From positions 20,411 through 84,410 of the forward strand of contig QHSU01000057.1 in NCBI GenBank assembly GCA_003220535.1: a DNA stretch of 64,000 bases. Reading direction: 5' to 3'. How positions within the stretch are numbered: the first letter of the stretch is position 1; every line of letters begins with the position of its first letter. The notes under the pieces were generated by a model that saw only the letters and a list, made by a program, of their open reading frames with translations, ran no database searches and was not told the DNA's origin. The stretch is from Candidatus Rokuibacteriota bacterium. GTDB taxonomy: Bacteria; Methylomirabilota; Methylomirabilia; Rokubacteriales; CSP1-6. Positions 23,781-64,000 of this stretch are shown piece by piece. The position numbers and the translations under genes were made by a program.

Positions 23781-23948
23781 CTAGTCTCCACCATGTTCGA
23801 TGGCCGGCGAGTGCGGCGGCGCGCTCGCCGACCGGCATCGAGAGGCCGCATCCCGAGCCTGGATCATGGTGCCCATGGCGGCGTCCATGAGAAGGATGCT
23901 GCGCTCGAAGGCCCGCGCGAACGCGGACGTCACTGCGAGTGTACTCAT
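23781..23948 (-). pseudogene. Isolated 5-prime fragment of a homocysteine S-methyltransferase-domain gene (MetH/MmuM-like N-terminus)
   Basis: The translation MSTLAVTSAFARAFERSILLMDAAMGTMIQ... matches the ...RILLLDG(A/G)MGTMIQ start of that domain. It then degenerates and stops after 55 codons. Confidence 0.4.
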
Positions 23949-56517: not shown

Positions 56518-56733
56518 TCGTGCCTCCCTGTCGAGTTTTCGGCCAGACATCTCGAGGGCGCAAGGACGCGCCGCACCCGCGCGGATCATACTCCAGGGCG
56601 GGGCGCCATGGGCCGTGCGTGGCCCGGGGTTGTTTCACCGCGCTTGAAGACGGCGGGAATCTCGGCTAAAGAGGCAGTATCCGTTGTCAACGTTTCGCGA
56701 TCATCAGACTGCCGCAGAGGGAAGGGGCACGCC

Positions 56734-57537
56734 ATGCTGATTGTCGACGCGCAGATCCACATCTGGAAGAACAACAAGCCGACGAATCCGAACCACCGTC
56801 AGGTCGCCGACTTCACGGTAGACGACGTGCTGAAGGAGATGGACGAGGGCGGCGTCGACGCGGCCGTGATTCATCCGCCCGGGTGGGATCCCAATTCCAA
56901 CGCGCTCGCGGTCGAAGCCGCGCGCCAGCATCCCAACCGTCTGGCGATCCTCGGCAACTTCCCCCTCGACAAGCCGGAAAGCCGCTCGTTGATCGACGGC
57001 CTGAAGAGTCGGCCGGGGATGCGCGGACTCCGCTTCGCGTTGCTGCAGCCGCATCAGAAGACGTGGCTGACCGACGGGACCATCGACTGGCTCTGGCCCG
57101 CGGCCGAGCGCGCGGGACTGCCGGTCGCGCTTCTCGGACCAGGTCTCCTGCAGGTCATCGGCCAGATCGCGGAGCGTCATCCGGGGCTCAAGCTGATCAT
57201 CGATCATTTCGGGCGCCCCGACGCCGCGTGGTCGAACCTGCCGGATCTTGTAGCGGCGGCGAAGCATCGTAACGTGGCGCTGAAGGCGACCGGGGCGCCG
57301 AGCTACTCGAGCGAGCCGTATCCGTATCGCGACATCCACGGGCATATCAAGAAGCTCTACGACGCCTTCGGCCCCGAGCGAATGTTCTGGGGGACCGACA
57401 TCACGCGGATGCCGTGCTCGTGGAGGCAGTGTGTCACGATGTTCACCGACGACATACCGTGGCTGTCGGCGAAGGACAAAGAGCTGATCATGGGGCGCGC
57501 GCTCTGCAACTGGATCGACTGGAAGCTGCCGGGATAG
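56734..57537 (+). CDS. Amidohydrolase-2 family protein
   Basis: It contains MLIVDAQIHIW (the metal-binding H-x-H) and ...LKLIIDHFG... . The protein is 267 aa. Confidence 0.75.
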   Translation: MLIVDAQIHIWKNNKPTNPNHRQVADFTVDDVLKEMDEGGVDAAVIHPPGWDPNSNALAVEAARQHPNRLAILGNFPLDKPESRSLIDGLKSRPGMRGLRFALLQPHQKTWLTDGTIDWLWPAAERAGLPVALLGPGLLQVIGQIAERHPGLKLIIDHFGRPDAAWSNLPDLVAAAKHRNVALKATGAPSYSSEPYPYRDIHGHIKKLYDAFGPERMFWGTDITRMPCSWRQCVTMFTDDIPWLSAKDKELIMGRALCNWIDWKLPG

Positions 57538-57826: not shown

Positions 57827-59008
57827 ATGGACGATCGTGACGCGATCGTATACGGGCATTGCGAGCCGGCATTCGAGCGGGTCCGCGACTCGCTCGCCGA
57901 AATTCTCGCCTCCGGTTCCGAGGTGGGCGCTGCCCTTGCCGTCTACATCGACAGGCACGCCGTCGTCGACCTGTGGGCAGGCCACACCGACGCCGCGCGG
58001 ACCCGACCGTGGGAGCGAGACACGATCGTCAACCTCTACTCCATCGGCAAGGCTGTCACCGCCGTTTGCGCGTTTCGGCTCGTCGAGGCCGGCCTGCTCG
58101 ATCTCGACGCGCCCGTCGCTCGCTACTGGCCCGAGTTCGCACAGGCGGGCAAGGCGCGGGTCCCGGTGCGCTATCTCCTGACGCATCAGGCGGCGCTGCC
58201 GGCCATCGCCCGCGCGCTGCCATCGGGGGCGTGGAGTTCCTGGGACATCATGACCGAGGCGCTCGCCGCCCAGGCACCGTGGTGGGAGCCGGGCGCCGGC
58301 CACGGGTATCACGTCAACTCACAGGGATTCCTGATCGGCGAGATCGTGCGACGCATCACCGGGAAGACGCTCGGCACCTATCTGCACGAGAGCATCGCCG
58401 GTCCCGCCGGCGTCGATTTCTTCATCGGCTTCGGTCCCGAGCTAGATGGACGCTGCGCCGATTTGCTGCCGCAACAGGCGAGTCCCGAAAGCGAGGAGCT
58501 TCGGCGTCAGCTCAGCGTGAATCCCGAGGGTCTGGACGGCTTGCCTCTGATGCGTGTCAACGCCTATCGCAACCCGCCCGAGGTTTCGGGAACTGGGGTG
58601 GTGAACACGCGCCAGTGGCGCGCGGCGGAGGTGCCGTCGACGAACGGGCACGGCAATGCGCGCGCGGTGGCGCGCCTCTACTCGGCGCTCGCCGGTGACG
58701 GCGAGCTGGACGGCGTCCATGTGCTCGCTCCGGAGACCGTCGCGCGTGCAACCGAGCAACAGGTTTATGGTGACGACATCGTGCTGCAACGCCCTACACG
58801 CTTCGGGCTCGGGTTCCAGCTCGCGATGACCGAGCGCCCGCTCGGTCCCAATCCGCGTGCGTTCGGGCACTTTGGCGCCGGCGGATCGCTCGGGTTCGCC
58901 GATCCCGACGCGCGCGTCGGCTTCGGCTACGCCATGAATCAGGGGCGCGGCGGCTGGCAGCACAAGCACGTTCGTCATCTCATCGATCTGGTCTACGCGG
59001 CGCTCTAA
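57827..59008 (+). CDS. Serine hydrolase of the beta-lactamase family (EstB/class-C-like esterase)
   Basis: The S-x-x-K motif is in YSIGKAVTA. The protein is 393 aa and has no signal peptide. Confidence 0.8.
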   Translation: MDDRDAIVYGHCEPAFERVRDSLAEILASGSEVGAALAVYIDRHAVVDLWAGHTDAARTRPWERDTIVNLYSIGKAVTAVCAFRLVEAGLLDLDAPVARYWPEFAQAGKARVPVRYLLTHQAALPAIARALPSGAWSSWDIMTEALAAQAPWWEPGAGHGYHVNSQGFLIGEIVRRITGKTLGTYLHESIAGPAGVDFFIGFGPELDGRCADLLPQQASPESEELRRQLSVNPEGLDGLPLMRVNAYRNPPEVSGTGVVNTRQWRAAEVPSTNGHGNARAVARLYSALAGDGELDGVHVLAPETVARATEQQVYGDDIVLQRPTRFGLGFQLAMTERPLGPNPRAFGHFGAGGSLGFADPDARVGFGYAMNQGRGGWQHKHVRHLIDLVYAAL

Positions 59009-59023
59009 CGAACAGGAGGCGCG

Positions 59024-59587
59024 ATGAGCGGGACACCGACCTTCGGACGCTATGCCGAGATTCCGATTGACCAGATGACGCCCGGGCAGCGAGACGGATA
59101 CCGCTTCCTGGTTGACGGCCCGCGCGGTCGGCTTCCCGGCCCCTACAAGGTTTGGGTGCACAATCCGAAGCTGGTGCACGCGGCCGCCCCGCTCGGACAG
59201 CATTTCACGCCGGGCCAGTCATCGCTGACGGAGCGCGAGCGAGAGATCGCCGTGATCGTCATGACCAGCAAATGGCATTCGGCCTACCCCACCGCTGCGC
59301 ACGAAAAGCGCGGCAAAGAGGTCGGCCTGTCCGCTCCCGCGGTGGAAGCGATGATCGCGGGCCTTCCGGCCTCGTTCGCGGACCCGCGGGAGCAGGTGGT
59401 CTACGAGGTGGCGATGGCGCTGGCCGGCGGTCAGCTGGTCTCTCAGGGCCTGTATGACCACGCGGTCAAGGCGCTCGGGCATGAGAGCATCACCGACATG
59501 ATCGTCCTGATGGGTTACTACACGGCTGTGTCGCTCACGATGAACTTCTATGCCGTGCCGGCCGGAAGCCCCGGCCTGGCCCGCTGA
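59024..59587 (+). CDS. Carboxymuconolactone-decarboxylase (CMD/AhpD-like) family protein
   Basis: It contains ...LTEREREIAVIVMTSKWHSAYPTAAHEKRGKEVGL..., a typical CMD helical repeat pattern. Confidence 0.65.
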   Translation: MSGTPTFGRYAEIPIDQMTPGQRDGYRFLVDGPRGRLPGPYKVWVHNPKLVHAAAPLGQHFTPGQSSLTEREREIAVIVMTSKWHSAYPTAAHEKRGKEVGLSAPAVEAMIAGLPASFADPREQVVYEVAMALAGGQLVSQGLYDHAVKALGHESITDMIVLMGYYTAVSLTMNFYAVPAGSPGLAR

Positions 59588-59598
59588 GGACCGTCATC

Positions 59599-60411
59599 AT
59601 GGCTCTACTCAAGATCACATCGCTGCATCCCTCGCTCGGCGCCGAGGTCGCCGGCGTCGACCTCAGCAAGCCGGTCGACGCGCCGACCCGGCAGGCGCTG
59701 TCACACGCGCTCGCCGACCATCTGGCGCTCGTCTTTCGCGATCAGGCGTTGACGCCGTCCCAGTATCTCGCCGCCGCTTCGGTGTTCGGCCCGCCGATGG
59801 AGCAGCACTACTCACAGCACAACATGCCGGACTTTCCCCTGATCGGGTTGGTCTGGCACCGGAATGGTCAGCAACCGGCCGAGCAGTGGCACACCGACCA
59901 CACCAACCGCGAGCGCCCGCCGGCCGCCACCATCTTGTATGGAGTGGAGATTCCATCGGCCGGTGGCGGGACCAGCGTCGCGAACATGCGCGCGGCCTAC
60001 GCCGCACTCTCCGAAGACGAACGCCGGCGCCTCGAATCGCTGAAGACGTTCAACAGCCTGGACAGCGGTCGCACCGACACTCGCCAGGAAGACAAGGACA
60101 AGTACGGCAAGCCGATCGAGCATCCGATGGTGCGCACCCATCCGGTGCATGGGTCGAGGGCGGTGTATTTCCACATCTCCAAGGCTCGCATCGACGGCAT
60201 GACACCGGAGGCCAGTCGCGCATACATGGCCGATCTCCTCGACCGGATGATTCGGCCGGAGATCGTCTACCACCATGCCTGGCGCAAAGGTGACGTCCTG
60301 ATCATCGACGACCGCGCGACGATGCACCGGGCGCACGGCGACTACGATCGAAGGCAGAGTCGGGTCCTGTGGCGGATCATCGTCGAAGGTGATCGTCCGC
60401 GGCTGGATTAG
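59599..60411 (+). CDS. TauD/TfdA-family Fe(II)/2-oxoglutarate dioxygenase
   Basis: It contains ...LGAEVAGVDLS..., WHTDH (H-x-D) and ...DDRATMHRA... . Confidence 0.85.
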   Translation: MALLKITSLHPSLGAEVAGVDLSKPVDAPTRQALSHALADHLALVFRDQALTPSQYLAAASVFGPPMEQHYSQHNMPDFPLIGLVWHRNGQQPAEQWHTDHTNRERPPAATILYGVEIPSAGGGTSVANMRAAYAALSEDERRRLESLKTFNSLDSGRTDTRQEDKDKYGKPIEHPMVRTHPVHGSRAVYFHISKARIDGMTPEASRAYMADLLDRMIRPEIVYHHAWRKGDVLIIDDRATMHRAHGDYDRRQSRVLWRIIVEGDRPRLD

Positions 60412-60455
60412 TCGAAGATCCGGCCGGTCCTCGTGGTCGCGACGCCGCTCCGCGC

Positions 60456-62168
60456 CTAGCGGGGCCCGAGGTCGCGCTCGGCGTCGGCGAGCAGGCGCTC
60501 GAAGGATGAGGGCAGCTCGATCGGGCGGCCGACAACGCCGGGGCTGTAGCCCTGCATCCAGTAGCTGTTGGTCGGGTGGCCGCCACCGGCCACGACGATC
60601 ACGAAGTTGTCGGGGCTGGCGGTGATCGGCCACGGGTCCAGGGCGAGGCTCTCGCGCGTCACCTTGCTCGCATCGATCTCGATCCACGCCGGACATCCCG
60701 CGCGACGGAGCTCTGCGACCGGGATCCTCGAATGCTCCCAGAGGAACTCACGGATCGATGCCTTGGTCCACCCGAGCCCGGCCATCGTCTGCGCCACCAC
60801 TCCCGGGATCATCAGGATGCCCGGCGTTCCCCGCTCGTAGCCGGCGAGCCCGGGCATGTTGGGCACGCGCATGAAATCGGCCATACGGTGCATGCCCTGG
60901 AGCGCGTCTTCCTCGGGCGTCTCCTTCTTGGCGCCGCGCCGCCGGATGTTGGTGACCCCATTCGCGAAGGCGAACGAGATCGAGCTTGTGCCCGGCTCGA
61001 AGCCGTGACGCTCGGCGCCGTGCGGCGTCCAGCCGGAGGGTAGATTCGCCTCGTCCTCGGCGAAGACCACGTTCGTGTAGCGCATGCCACCGTAGTTCGC
61101 CATGGTGCCGATGCCGGGCAGGGCGCCGCCGAGGTTCTGCTGCAACAGGCGCAGCGCTCGGCCGATGCTCGCGCCCGCCGGCCGCTGCGGATCCGGGCCA
61201 AGGCAGCCGAAGCCGGCATTCAGCCGGATCTGGGCGCCGATCGGCCCGTTGACGATCACCACCGGAAAGGCGCTGCCCGACGCGGCCTGCAGCTGCTCGC
61301 TCCCGGACTCGGCGTCGAGGAAGGCGCTCACGGCAGCCACGAGCACCGGCACGTACTCGGGCCGCCCGCCCGCCATCGCCAGCGCGATGGCGCATGACTC
61401 GACCGTGGTCACGCCGCCCCGCGGCGGAAAAGTGCCGAGCCCGCGTCCGCGCGGCTGCGCGGCGCCGCCCAGGATCCAGTCCACTCGTTCCCGCGTCGGG
61501 GGCCAGAGCGGCAGGCCATCACCCCAGCGGTTGGCGAGCATCAGATGATTCGCGCGGGCGAAGGCGTCCTCGACACTCGTGCCCTGCACGTGGACCATCG
61601 GCGCCCCGCTCACGCCATCGCCGGCAAAGGCCGAGCGCCACCGCGTCAGGCCGTCGTAGAACTCACGCTTGCGCACCTCCATTGGAGAGATGTCGCTGCC
61701 CGGCAGGAACATCTCGATGGGAAAGGTGACCATCGCCGCGTCCGGCGCCAACCCGACTCCAGCGACGGCGTTCGTCATGACCCCCACGAAATCCTCGCGG
61801 GTCAGCGTGACCGTCGGGATTCCCCGTGCTTCGAGCCTAGCGGCCGCCCGGCCGCATGCAGTGGCGCAGGACCCTCAGGCAGCGTTGCCGATGATGACGG
61901 CGTCGACCCCGCTCTCCTTGACGAGCGCCGCCGTCTCCTCCGAGCCGATCACGGCGTTGCCCTGGGGGAAAGCGTCGATCGGCAGCACCTCGATGCCCGG
62001 GAAGTCCACCTCGAGCAGGGCCTTCAGACGGGGGAGCATGCGGTAGGCCTGCCACTGCTCGTTGCTGACGAAGCCGACGCGCTTGCCCTCGAGGGTGGCG
62101 ATGCGCGGCGCGTGCGGCTGCTTCACTTCGATGGCGCCGGACGGGTCGTGGAACTCGAGGTTCACCAT
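60456..62168 (-). CDS. Candidate selenoprotein: UGSC-family redox domain (Sec at codon 98, TGA 61877-61875) fused in-frame to an uncharacterised module of about 370 aa
   Basis: ORFs 61875..62330 and 60456..61787 share one frame and are separated only by this TGA. The context is ...DAVIIGNAA-TGA-GSCATACGRAAARLEARGIPTV.... AGGAGG lies 7 nt before ATG 62168, and a hairpin lies 20 nt after the TGA. Confidence 0.55.
61840..61855 (-). promoter_or_regulatory. SECIS-candidate stem-loop (6-bp GC stem, GGGC loop) downstream of the in-frame TGA
   Basis: The mRNA sense reads GCGGCC-GGGC-GGCCGC. The loop begins 25 nt after the UGA and starts with G. Confidence 0.35.
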
Positions 62169-62223
62169 GAGATGCCCTCCTGGAAACGTCATCTTACCCG
62201 CGCTGGCCGCGCGACGCGTCAGA

Positions 62224-63453
62224 TCATCCATCGGCGACGCCCTTCGCGGGCCGGGTCGAGGCGGCCGTCGATTGGACGCGAGCCGGGCGCTGATGGGGCA
62301 AGCCGAGCGCCACGAGAATGCCCAGGGCATTGCCGCCGGCGGCGATCAGGATCGCGGATCCGTAGCCCTGAGTCAGGTCGAACAGGTAGCCGGCGGTGAT
62401 TGGCAGGATGATGGCGGCGGCGCACCATGCGAGGTAGATCCGGCTGGCAATCCGGCCGTACAGCGCACGTCTCCAGTACACGGCCACCGCGGCCGCGGTG
62501 ACGCCGGAGATCACCCCGTAGCCCATCCCCACGAGCGCCAGTGCCAGGACCGATACGCCGGGGCCGGGCCACAGCGTCAGCGCCACGTTGCCGGCGAGTG
62601 CGACGGCGTGCGCGCCGGCCGCGACCGCAGGAATGGTCAGCCAGTCGACCATCCACCCGCCTCCCAAGCGTGCGACGGCGATCGTGCCGGCGATGAAGGT
62701 CGTGCCGTAGACGGCGAGCGAGGTCGCGCCACCATAGGCCGCGATGATGCCGGCGGCCTGACTGAGCACCATCAGCCCAGCGGACGCCGCCAGGAAGAAG
62801 ACGATCCACAGTCGCCAGAACACGGGCCGGCGTCGTTCTCCCTCGTCAGGCGCGATGCTCGCGGCGGCCGCCGCCAGCGTGACGCCGGATTGCGCGATCA
62901 GCCACGCGCTGATCGAGCCGGTGACGGCCAGGACCGTGGCGAGGCCCCCGAGCGTGGCGCGCACGCCGAACTCGCCGATGGACCACCCGAAGAGGGGCGC
63001 GGCGATCATCGCGCCGGCCGGATACAGCCCGACGATGTAGCCGTTCACCAGACCGTGGCGCCTCGTCACGGCGAGGTTCACCGTTTGCTGCGCGAGGATG
63101 TAAGCAGCGCCACCACCGGCGCCGAACAACACTCCGTACCCCACGGCCAGCTGGGCGAGACCGCCCGCCGTCGCGGCAACCGCGATGCCCAGCGCGCTCG
63201 CGGCCGCACAGGCCAGCACCAGTGCCGTGGTCGACGCGAGGCCGAAGAAGTGAGGCGCCAGAAGCATGCCGGCGCCGAATCCGCCGGATGCAAGGGCGAA
63301 GACGAGCGCGAGATCGGCCCGGCTCAGCCCGAGCAGCGCTTCCAGCGGCTTCAAGAACACGCTGAACGCGTAGAGCGACCCGAGCGGGGCATTGAGCACG
63401 GTGGCGGCCGCGACGGCGCGCCACGCGCTCGGCCTGACGTCAGGCTCGTTCAC
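62224..63453 (-). CDS. MFS transporter (oxalate/formate-antiporter-like subfamily)
   Basis: 409 aa with 12 TM segments. The N-terminus ...NAPLGSLYAFSVFLKPLE... is typical of OFA-type MFS. It has a GTG start. The stop lies 55 nt upstream of the UGSC gene start. Confidence 0.8.
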   Translation of the reverse strand: MNEPDVRPSAWRAVAAATVLNAPLGSLYAFSVFLKPLEALLGLSRADLALVFALASGGFGAGMLLAPHFFGLASTTALVLACAAASALGIAVAATAGGLAQLAVGYGVLFGAGGGAAYILAQQTVNLAVTRRHGLVNGYIVGLYPAGAMIAAPLFGWSIGEFGVRATLGGLATVLAVTGSISAWLIAQSGVTLAAAAASIAPDEGERRRPVFWRLWIVFFLAASAGLMVLSQAAGIIAAYGGATSLAVYGTTFIAGTIAVARLGGGWMVDWLTIPAVAAGAHAVALAGNVALTLWPGPGVSVLALALVGMGYGVISGVTAAAVAVYWRRALYGRIASRIYLAWCAAAIILPITAGYLFDLTQGYGSAILIAAGGNALGILVALGLPHQRPARVQSTAASTRPAKGVADG

Positions 63454-63516: not shown

Positions 63517-64000
63517 CTACGGCAGGAGCGCTGCGACGCGGATTCGCGCTCGGGGCGCGGCCAGCGGCGTGACGATGGCGTTGCGACGGAGCATACGGAC
63601 CGAGTCGTACTTCCAGTCGCCGAGCCCCGATGGGGCGCGCACCGGCTCCCGGTAGACCTCCAGCACTTCGTCGATCAGGTTGACCACCCAGTAGTCGGCG
63701 ATCCCCGCTCGCGCGTAGAGGCCGCCCTTGCGCAGCCGGTCGAGGGCGAGCGACGTGTCGGCGACCTCGACGACCAGCACGGGCCGAGAGGGATGGGCCG
63801 CGAGGTAGTCTCGCAGTCGGCCCGGCACGACGACGACATCGGGCTCGGGCTCCGATTGCTCGTCGAGCGCGATCGGCTTTTCTTCGCGTATGTGGTACGC
63901 GCTGCCGAACGCCTTGTCGAGTGCGGCGCGCACGAGGCCGACCACCGTGGCGTGGCGCTCTGCTTGGGGCTCTCGGGCGACGAGCAAGCCGTCGAGCAGC
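63517..64000 (-). CDS. Uma2-family (DUF820) PD-(D/E)XK endonuclease-like protein, N-terminus beyond the window end
   Basis: It contains ...EPEPDVVVVPG... and ...PVLVVEVADTSLALDRLRKGGLYARAGIADYWVVNL... . The frame is still open at base 64000. Confidence 0.75.
   Translation of the reverse strand, partial: LLDGLLVAREPQAERHATVVGLVRAALDKAFGSAYHIREEKPIALDEQSEPEPDVVVVPGRLRDYLAAHPSRPVLVVEVADTSLALDRLRKGGLYARAGIADYWVVNLIDEVLEVYREPVRAPSGLGDWKYDSVRMLRRNAIVTPLAAPRARIRVAALLP

Follow-up and report, generated by a model that had tools for sequence, protein, structure and literature searches.

Two ORFs (open reading frames) that lie in one frame and are parted by a single TGA can be two genes or one gene that has been cut by its annotation. 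This question is raised at 60456..62168, on the minus strand of a 64,000-nucleotide stretch of contig QHSU01000057.1 from a Candidatus Rokuibacteriota bacterium; we call the whole stretch the window and number positions from its first letter. An earlier note, made from the letters alone, had proposed that the TGA is read as selenocysteine (Sec) in a UGSC-type selenoprotein. Our analysis indicates that the two neighbouring ORFs are one gene of 570 residues, whose in-frame TGA almost certainly encodes Sec. The gene has what we term the long form of the family, a UGSC domain joined to a large uncharacterised domain, a point that the earlier note had missed. Taken as a whole, a long-form UGSC gene with UGA98 as Sec, directed by a hairpin and combining a redox module with a C-terminal domain, is the best explanation of the locus, with a probability of about 0.88.

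One reading frame across an in-frame TGA

The proposed complete selenoprotein gene (60456..62168, minus strand) consists of 571 codons, that is, 570 residues and a TAG stop, and the TGA at codon 98 is its only other stop. This TGA (61875..61877, minus strand), the proposed Sec codon, occupies a conserved column within the motif NAA-U-GSC (local translation ...VIIGNAA*GSCATACGRAAARLEARGIPTVTLTREDF...), and decoding it as Sec gives the U-G-S-C motif at residue 98 that the earlier note had read. The TGC codon at 61866..61868 would provide Cys101, the proposed resolving cysteine of the UxxC pair; the third position of this codon is invariant across 119 distinct Sec-type sequences. All Sec-type loci examined have the motif U/C-G-[S/T/A/G]-C, as do most of the full-length homologues.

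Both ORFs described in the earlier note exist, on the minus strand and in the same frame, and the 87 nt between them translate as 29 sense codons with no further stop. The first, an artefactual N-terminal fragment of 151 amino acids (61875..62330), ends at the Sec codon and is over-extended upstream into the end of an MFS gene; homologues begin at the position of ATG 62168. The second (60456..61787), as gene callers report it, is an artefactual truncated product of 443 amino acids from GTG 61787, a codon that lies within conserved coding sequence and has no Shine-Dalgarno-like sequence before it. ATG 62168 is preceded by a Shine-Dalgarno-like AGGAGG (62176..62181, minus strand), read from the sequence, with the 7-nt spacer that had been claimed. 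This start is backed by the N-terminus, which reads MVNLEFHDPSG here and MVELEFYDPSG in full-length homologues, the pattern MV.LEF.DPSG being conserved at this position.

The GC content of the window is 67.6%, and a TGA joining two open stretches is common there; a crude scan returned 165 TGA-joined ORF sites with a Cys-, Ser- or Thr-type motif nearby. The case therefore rests on comparative evidence. The site at TGA 61877, the one among the 165 for which homology searches were done, is also the only one that reads like real protein on both flanks. Homology sets it apart, with one Pfam domain extending over the stop and the TGA column kept in ~160 independent assemblies. TGA terminates 12 of the 19 long ORFs in the window with high GC3 (GC content at third codon positions) and is therefore not reassigned genome-wide, implying that recoding must depend on local context. 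Mean column entropy over the 24 codons after the TGA, calculated from 80 distinct sequences, is 0.24, 0.10 and 0.94 bits at codon positions 1, 2 and 3, respectively. As judged from this alignment, the pattern is one of purifying selection on protein, in a place where a two-gene model expects intergenic DNA.

The TGA column is conserved among relatives

A protein database search with the fused sequence gave 1,873 matches. Among the best 120, 115 are products of 425–457 amino acids (75–80% query coverage, 83–100% identity), which are called ‘hypothetical protein’ wherever they are named, one of them from a Methylomirabilota bacterium. The prediction that gene callers would split or truncate the gene is thus borne out; indeed, virtually all public assemblies that contain it show it in two pieces. 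The other five (P0106, P0114, P0116, P0119 and P0120) have 575–576 amino acids, 65% identity and 100% query coverage, and carry the Pfam domain PF24696. They are colinear from MVELEFYDPSG to the C-terminus, with IGNAA-C-GSC at the TGA column.

A genome scan using one genome per species returned 80 loci (69–95% identity), mostly from metagenome-assembled genomes (MAGs) of Rokubacteria/Methylomirabilota and Betaproteobacteria/Burkholderiales. The window gene is colinear with these loci over its whole length, and all 80 have TGA at the column, within U-G-[S/T/A]-C, with protein conserved on both sides. A metagenome scan seeded with the Cys homologue P0106 found TGA at 72 of 80 loci and TGC at the remaining eight; the two scans together give 152 TGA and 8 TGC (Cys) among 160 loci.

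For more distant relatives, P0106 was run exhaustively against the representatives of 50%-identity clusters, which gave 3,402 proteins at E<=1e-3, a figure that includes proteins matching just one of the two domains. Among the top 150 of these, ~30 have ~450 amino acids and a match that begins at query residues 101–131, and ~19 are full-length. The DNA of seven ‘short’ relatives (28–42% identity) has an in-frame TGA at the same column in every case, within U-G-[S/G]-C, and the N-terminal UGSC half is open upstream of it. More distant full-length members carry GDCGSCT, GGCGTCT or GACGACT at the column. Cys or TGA thus aligns here, as expected in the earlier note, and none of the homologues examined has TAA or TAG at this point and a separate gene after it. 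At the level of sequence comparison, these results establish that UGA98 is conserved, aligned with Cys, placed inside one domain and followed by coding-type evolution.

The Sec form is also present in a cultured bacterium, Acidovorax sp. T1, where plasmid p2-T1 (NZ_CP021650.1; L170 5965-7680) reads ...VITGSGD-TGA-GSCTSW... and the gene table holds just a 96-amino-acid N-terminal fragment. This conjugative IncP plasmid carries the long form next to IS1071 and IS91-family transposases. The C-terminus of this copy departs from the family after ...LLVAGG, and it may be truncated or decayed. Copies with 71–90% identity were seen on contigs labelled as Nitrosotalea (an archaeon), Dormiibacterota, Acidoferrum, Streptomyces and ‘Bordetella parapertussis’ MAGs (L004, L009, L011, L028, L040, L041 and others), for which mis-binning or poor labelling is a more likely explanation than real hosts. 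The sharing of the gene between Rokubacteria and Burkholderiales at ~70–75% identity suggests horizontal transfer.

A hairpin downstream of the TGA resembles a selenocysteine insertion sequence

A hairpin resembling a selenocysteine insertion sequence (SECIS) occupies 61837..61858 on the minus strand, beginning 19 nt after the UGA. Its 5' arm (61855-61850, GCGGCC) pairs with its 3' arm (61845-61840, GGCCGC) around the loop GGGC (61849-61846), and the stem is prolonged by the outer pairs A61857-U61839, across a bulged U61856, and C61858-G61837. The apical loop begins 25 nt after the UGA. Both this offset and an apical loop with G or GU agree with published models of bacterial SECIS elements. 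As in the E. coli fdhF SECIS, the stem-loop lies in the coding sequence soon after the UGA, with a G/GU in its loop and a bulged U below the upper stem. Unlike known bacterial SECIS elements, it is matched by no Rfam SECIS model, and its stem sequence is specific to the family.

Since the folding energy is unremarkable for a GC-rich sequence, we relied on synonymous sites and compensatory changes. With the U of the UGA taken as nt 1, entropy is zero at the stem third positions (nt 24, 27 and 36), as it is in the Cys101 codon (nt 12), among the 119 distinct Sec-type sequences, and the remaining four-fold sites of the region have 0.85–1.65 bits. In the eight Cys-type sequences, nt 27 has 1.75 bits and nt 36 has 1.41 bits. 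Two synonymous sites flanking the stem covary (AU 37, GC 20, UG 9, unpaired 11), with a score that was reached in 0 of 500 shuffles and that is lower in every slid register. RNAalifold alone recovered an invariant 5-bp core and no covariation. Distant Sec forms have hairpins at the same offset with other stems, namely CCGGC/GCCGG (L081), GCAGCC/GGCUGC (L165), GGCUGGU/ACCAGCU (L168) and, in the Acidovorax Sec form, GUCGUGGA/UCCACGAC; loops of the distant Sec forms contain G or GU. Together, these sequence patterns make the identification of the hairpin as a SECIS well supported, but unproven.

The codon of Cys105 (61854-61856, TGC) gives the first two bases of the hairpin stem. Sec forms of Rokubacteria and Burkholderiales have this extra Cys, in U-G-S-C-A-T-A-C, while Cys forms have Leu (TTG, CTC or CTG) and distant Sec forms have other residues at the position. 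At Cys105, the protein sequence may be influenced by RNA structure.

A UGSC domain fused to an uncharacterised partner

For family-model searches of the fused translation, Cys was put in place of the stop. Residues 7–151 match positions 3–145 of the 172-position Pfam profile PF24696 with 83.7 bits (gathering score 25), placing the UGSC domain at 61716..62150 on the minus strand, interrupted by the TGA; 34 of 50 relatives likewise match. A single Pfam domain therefore spans the TGA, in agreement with the earlier argument that a true stop would cut one conserved fold at its motif. The NCBIfam model NF041046 (UGSC_fam) aligns residues 27–149 with profile positions 1–119 of 147 at 52.2 bits, under its cut-off of 125, meaning that the proposed family placement holds for PF24696 and does not for NF041046. 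Other long forms score 112–131 bits against NF041046, and one of them, P0250, passes at 131.

The window protein is thus like the UGSC family (PF24696, NF041046) in that its N-terminal domain matches the model across the TGA and has U-G-S-C at the family’s Sec/Cys column, with both Sec and Cys forms occurring. It differs from the stand-alone UGSC protein of ~150 residues in its length of 570 residues, of which the UGSC domain makes up the first ~180, and in being fused to a ~380-residue domain without a family assignment. Since 2007, the ‘UGSC-containing protein’ has counted as an accepted selenoprotein family without a known function (PMC1976440; PMC2398784); it was found to be abundant in the Global Ocean Sampling aquatic metagenomes (255 Sec and 21 Cys sequences; PMC2398784) and is listed with NF041046 in current reviews (PMC13188914, PMC9312934). 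A fusion called ‘UGSC/Unknown_1’ was already described in 2008 (PMC2398784, Fig. S1A), and its ‘Unknown_1’ part may or may not be the C-terminal domain described here. With both the family and a UGSC fusion already known, the window gene is an additional member, and the points of interest are its systematic mis-annotation, a defined partner domain without a known fold and the prediction of a fold other than that of thioredoxin (Trx).

To describe the architecture, we used an AlphaFold2 model of the Cys homologue P0106, which reached a predicted local distance difference test (pLDDT) score of 93.7 and a predicted template modelling (pTM) score of 0.93 with a 50-sequence alignment; a shallow 28-sequence alignment gave a pLDDT of 56.7 only. 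In this model, the first ~180 residues form a parallel beta-alpha-beta, Rossmann/flavodoxin-like domain, in which the U/C residue lies between strand 90–96 and helix 99–114, and the first turn of the helix holds the second Cys. A dip in confidence at residues 181–190 marks a linker, after which comes a second, larger domain. Foldseek comparison of the model with the PDB gave no match at E<=1e-3. The best matches (E ~1.4e-3, ~150 aligned columns) are Rossmann/flavodoxin-like domains, namely the N-terminal domains of dehydroquinate synthase, MccF and Fe-ADH and also a B12-binding domain, and no thioredoxin-fold entry is among the top 50. A ‘likely Trx-like fold’ had been guessed for UGSC (PMC2398784); with the P0106 model predicted to be Rossmann-like instead, we do not retain a thioredoxin fold for the UGSC domain. 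Like thioredoxin-fold oxidoreductases (Trx-, Prx- and DsbA-like selenoproteins), the protein has a U/CxxC redox-type motif at a helix N-terminus, but the homologue model differs from them in its parallel beta-alpha-beta topology.

The C-terminal domain (60459..61601, minus strand; ~380 residues, about 190 to 570) carries the motifs W-G-D-G-L-P-x-x-P-P-T, A-M-A-G-G-R-P-E-Y, V-N-G-P, I-G-R-A-L-R-L, F-A-E-D-E and V-A-G-G. It has no Pfam match even at E<=10, no PDB sequence match with a single sequence or a profile, and no structural neighbour in the PDB by Foldseek. NCBIfam at E<=0.01 gave no family besides UGSC_fam for the window protein, and relatives gave just weak, scattered and mutually unrelated single-member matches for this domain. 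Its most conserved positions include D217, T225, T255, R337, E371, E373 and W380 (P0106 numbering), and no Cys or His is conserved in it across the family. A C-terminal tail, ...RD[LI]GCGxxxCx[IV], is conserved in betaproteobacterial Sec forms and in Cys forms (L022-L080, L083-L162), while the Rokubacteria clade that includes the window (60456-60470) ends in ...RDLGPR, without either tail Cys. The presence of the tail in betaproteobacterial Sec forms rules it out as a mark of Cys forms only; as a flexible CxxxC segment, it could be an electron-shuttling arm.

One true split of the two domains was found. On plasmid 2 of Halalkalicoccus jeotgali B3 (NC_014299.1; L169 5932-7536), they are adjacent genes in the same frame, encoding a 201-amino-acid Cys-type ‘UGSC family (seleno)protein’ and a 332-amino-acid ‘hypothetical protein’ that corresponds to the C-terminal domain. 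The junction, TGAATG, lies at the inter-domain linker near residue 201 and not at the motif. The UGSC and C-terminal modules are therefore partners, whether fused or separate. The same cluster holds TRAP transporter, CoA-transferase, RraA-family, amidase, SDR and aldehyde dehydrogenase genes.

Proposed mechanism and relation to selenoprotein B

There is strong reason to propose that UGA98 is decoded as Sec by means of the downstream hairpin: SelB and Sec-tRNA(Sec) would read the codon, with SelB recruited by the mRNA hairpin 19 nt downstream. With moderate confidence, the homologue model places Sec98 and Cys101 at the end of a beta-strand and in the first turn of the following helix of the Rossmann-like domain, where they would form a redox couple, presumably a redox-active selenenylsulfide/selenol-thiol couple at the helix N-terminus. 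By analogy, the redox module might act on a small molecule bound by the C-terminal domain, giving a reductase whose plan resembles that of the Sec-containing B proteins of glycine and D-proline reductase; its substrate would perhaps be a carboxylate, delivered by transporters that are often encoded nearby.

The analogy comes from a segment of ~45 residues around U/CxxC, which gives weak but recurrent matches to the Sec region of the GrdB, GrdH, GrdF and PrdB models (E 9e-4 to 0.04). For the window protein, the sole match of the selenoprotein-B type is Pfam Gly_reductase at E 0.038; selenoprotein B models match relatives only, at best with 18.3 bits over ~40 residues. A UxxC motif is listed for PrdB (PMC2398784). 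Like selenoprotein B (GrdB, GrdH, GrdF, PrdB; TIGR01917, TIGR01918, TIGR04483, NF040795), the window protein has a UxxC motif and, as a concept, a Sec/Cys pair serving a substrate-binding module. Unlike it, the family scores 13–18 bits against cut-offs of 65–800, has an unrelated domain order and remaining sequence, is not accompanied by GrdA, GrdE or PrdA encoded nearby, and gives no evidence for a pyruvoyl group. In terms of sequence, the similarity to GrdB and PrdB is a lead and not membership. A broader proposal, that long-form UGSC proteins make up a widespread and hitherto unrecognised class of reductases that use selenium to act on small molecules, with the Rossmann-like Sec/Cys module reducing a substrate held by the C-terminal domain, is tentative and, in our estimate, doubtful. 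Under that proposal, the Sec/Cys module would be distantly related to the Sec region of GrdB/PrdB, the C-terminal domain would have a fold without a counterpart in the PDB, and the substrate may be a carboxylate taken up through the MFS, TctC or TRAP transporters whose genes neighbour many copies.

Weighing the selenocysteine reading

Several results weigh against the reading of this locus as a hairpin-directed selenoprotein gene, or against its functional part. The folding energy has a z-score of +0.44 in the window, and ten diverse members range from -2.1 to +0.6; a permissive Rfam scan of 60000-63000 gave no SECIS family match even at E<=10, with chance hits only; and, of the six core stem pairs, four are invariant and at the same time encode the conserved Gly-Arg-Ala-Ala. 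The score against NF041046 remains under the equivalog cut-off, the modelled protein is a 65%-identical Cys homologue and not the window protein itself, and the likeness to GrdB/PrdB is far under the family cut-offs (TIGR01918, 65 bits; equivalogs, 300–800 bits). The Cys residues are lost in a few distant family members, and ORF clustering over 81 loci found no neighbour conserved across phyla. Finally, neither the window nor 1.7 Mb of related loci yielded selA, selB or tRNA-Sec (no search for selD was made): SelA and SelB of E. coli as tblastn queries gave generic GTPase-domain matches only, ARAGORN found no tRNA-Sec in the window and 40 loci, an Rfam scan of the window at gathering thresholds returned nothing, and the permissive scan of 60000-63000 contained no tRNA-Sec. 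Methylomirabilota as a phylum are reported to be selenoprotein-rich (PMC13188914, PMC13582414). ARAGORN also called a 98-nt ‘tRNA-Glu (CTC)’ at 23830-23927 (minus strand), which reads like coding DNA and not like tRNA-Sec; Rfam tRNA models have no match in the whole window, and the call is probably a false positive.

If the TGA were a genuine stop, a 97-residue N-terminal protein would be followed by an independent 443-residue protein from GTG 61787. Gene callers give this arrangement, 115 of the 120 best matches have 425–457 amino acids, and both domains do form a real two-gene arrangement in Halalkalicoccus. However, the Halalkalicoccus split is at the linker near residue 201 and not at the TGA column, and a stop at that column would cut a single Pfam domain at its motif. 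The protein sequence of the 29 codons from the TGA to the GTG is conserved, and their variation falls at third positions; the GTG lies inside conserved coding sequence without a Shine-Dalgarno-like sequence; and the Cys homologues read straight through. We consider a genuine stop extremely improbable on these grounds. TGA and TGC differ by a single base, which might point to a pseudogene or to a sequencing or assembly error, but ~160 independent assemblies, representing two phyla, share this TGA and have an intact frame to either side of it, and purifying selection is evident after the stop; this idea is already effectively refuted.

The UGA could also be read through, or recoded, with another residue, for example by a near-cognate tRNA that inserts Trp or Cys, stimulated by the hairpin. 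The inserted residue cannot be identified from the letters of the DNA, and the Sec machinery was not found in the window and related loci (selD not searched for), leaving some room for this mechanism. Against it, homologues align Cys in CxxC at this column, a classic Sec/Cys exchange, and the offset of the hairpin and the G/GU of its loop fit bacterial SECIS models. UGSC is, moreover, an accepted selenoprotein family with many Sec members (PMC2398784), and extensive use of Sec is reported for the host phylum (PMC13188914, PMC13582414); read-through with a different residue is thus very unlikely. A less remote alternative accepts Sec and denies the hairpin at 61858-61837 a function as SECIS, ascribing its conservation to the peptide C-G-R-A-A-A and GC-rich codons, with the real signal elsewhere or less structured. 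It draws on the four of six core pairs that are invariant within codons of conserved residues, a folding energy no better than that of shuffled sequence, GC-rich hairpins that Cys-type sequences form nearby too, and the failure of RNAalifold by itself to find a compensatory pair. Yet the four-fold third positions of the stem are frozen in the 119 Sec-type sequences and variable in the eight Cys-type sequences for the same residues, the flanking pair covaries through three pair types at two synonymous sites, and a hairpin recurs at this offset in distant Sec forms, where the stems are unrelated and the encoded residues different. We therefore regard a hairpin without SECIS function as unlikely, and retain hairpin-directed insertion of Sec at UGA98 as the preferred reading.

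Recognition of the Sec codon restores a 570-residue protein of a long form that NF041046, the NCBIfam UGSC model, misses here, and gives Rokubacteria/Methylomirabilota, as well as Burkholderiales of soil and groundwater, an additional selenoprotein. The UGSC module, without a known function since 2007, is now tied to a specific partner domain; the two are fused in most lineages and adjacent genes in a haloarchaeon, which indicates a shared function. Cultured carriers such as Acidovorax sp. T1 (Sec form) offer a handle on that function. Plasmid-borne relatives in other cultured carriers occur in Variovorax (V. boronicumulans), Paracoccus (P. versutus), Neorhizobium (N. galegae) and Halalkalicoccus, of which the only one checked, Halalkalicoccus, is Cys-type. 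Knowledge of Sec decoding itself is unchanged by the finding.

Gene neighbourhood

A scan for promoters and terminators around the gene gave nothing useful. Upstream, an MFS transporter gene (62224..63453, minus strand; Pfam MFS_1, 43.8 bits) ends with a TGA 55 nt before the start of the selenoprotein gene, making a shared operon possible; this neighbour is kept in ~5 close relatives only. A putative endonuclease of the Uma2 family lies further upstream (63517-63987). Downstream, on the opposite strand, are a convergent TauD/TfdA-family dioxygenase gene (59599-60411), an ORF of 187 amino acids (59024-59587), a beta-lactamase-family protein (57827-59008) and an Amidohydro_2 protein (56608-57537). 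The 187-amino-acid ORF has no Pfam match, and its assignment as CMD/AhpD-like was dropped. Burkholderiales loci have Bug/TctC receptors as neighbours, and the clustering of the 81 neighbourhoods brought out just these abundant receptors and lineage-local synteny.

In three loci of a distant Sec-type branch (L081 2859-3443; L082 2157-2741; L167 1813-2463 and 2486-3660), the long form is closely followed by a rhodanese-domain gene, which may be a link to sulfur or selenium transfer. At L167, there is also a second, short UGSC gene, followed by a MauE/DoxX gene.

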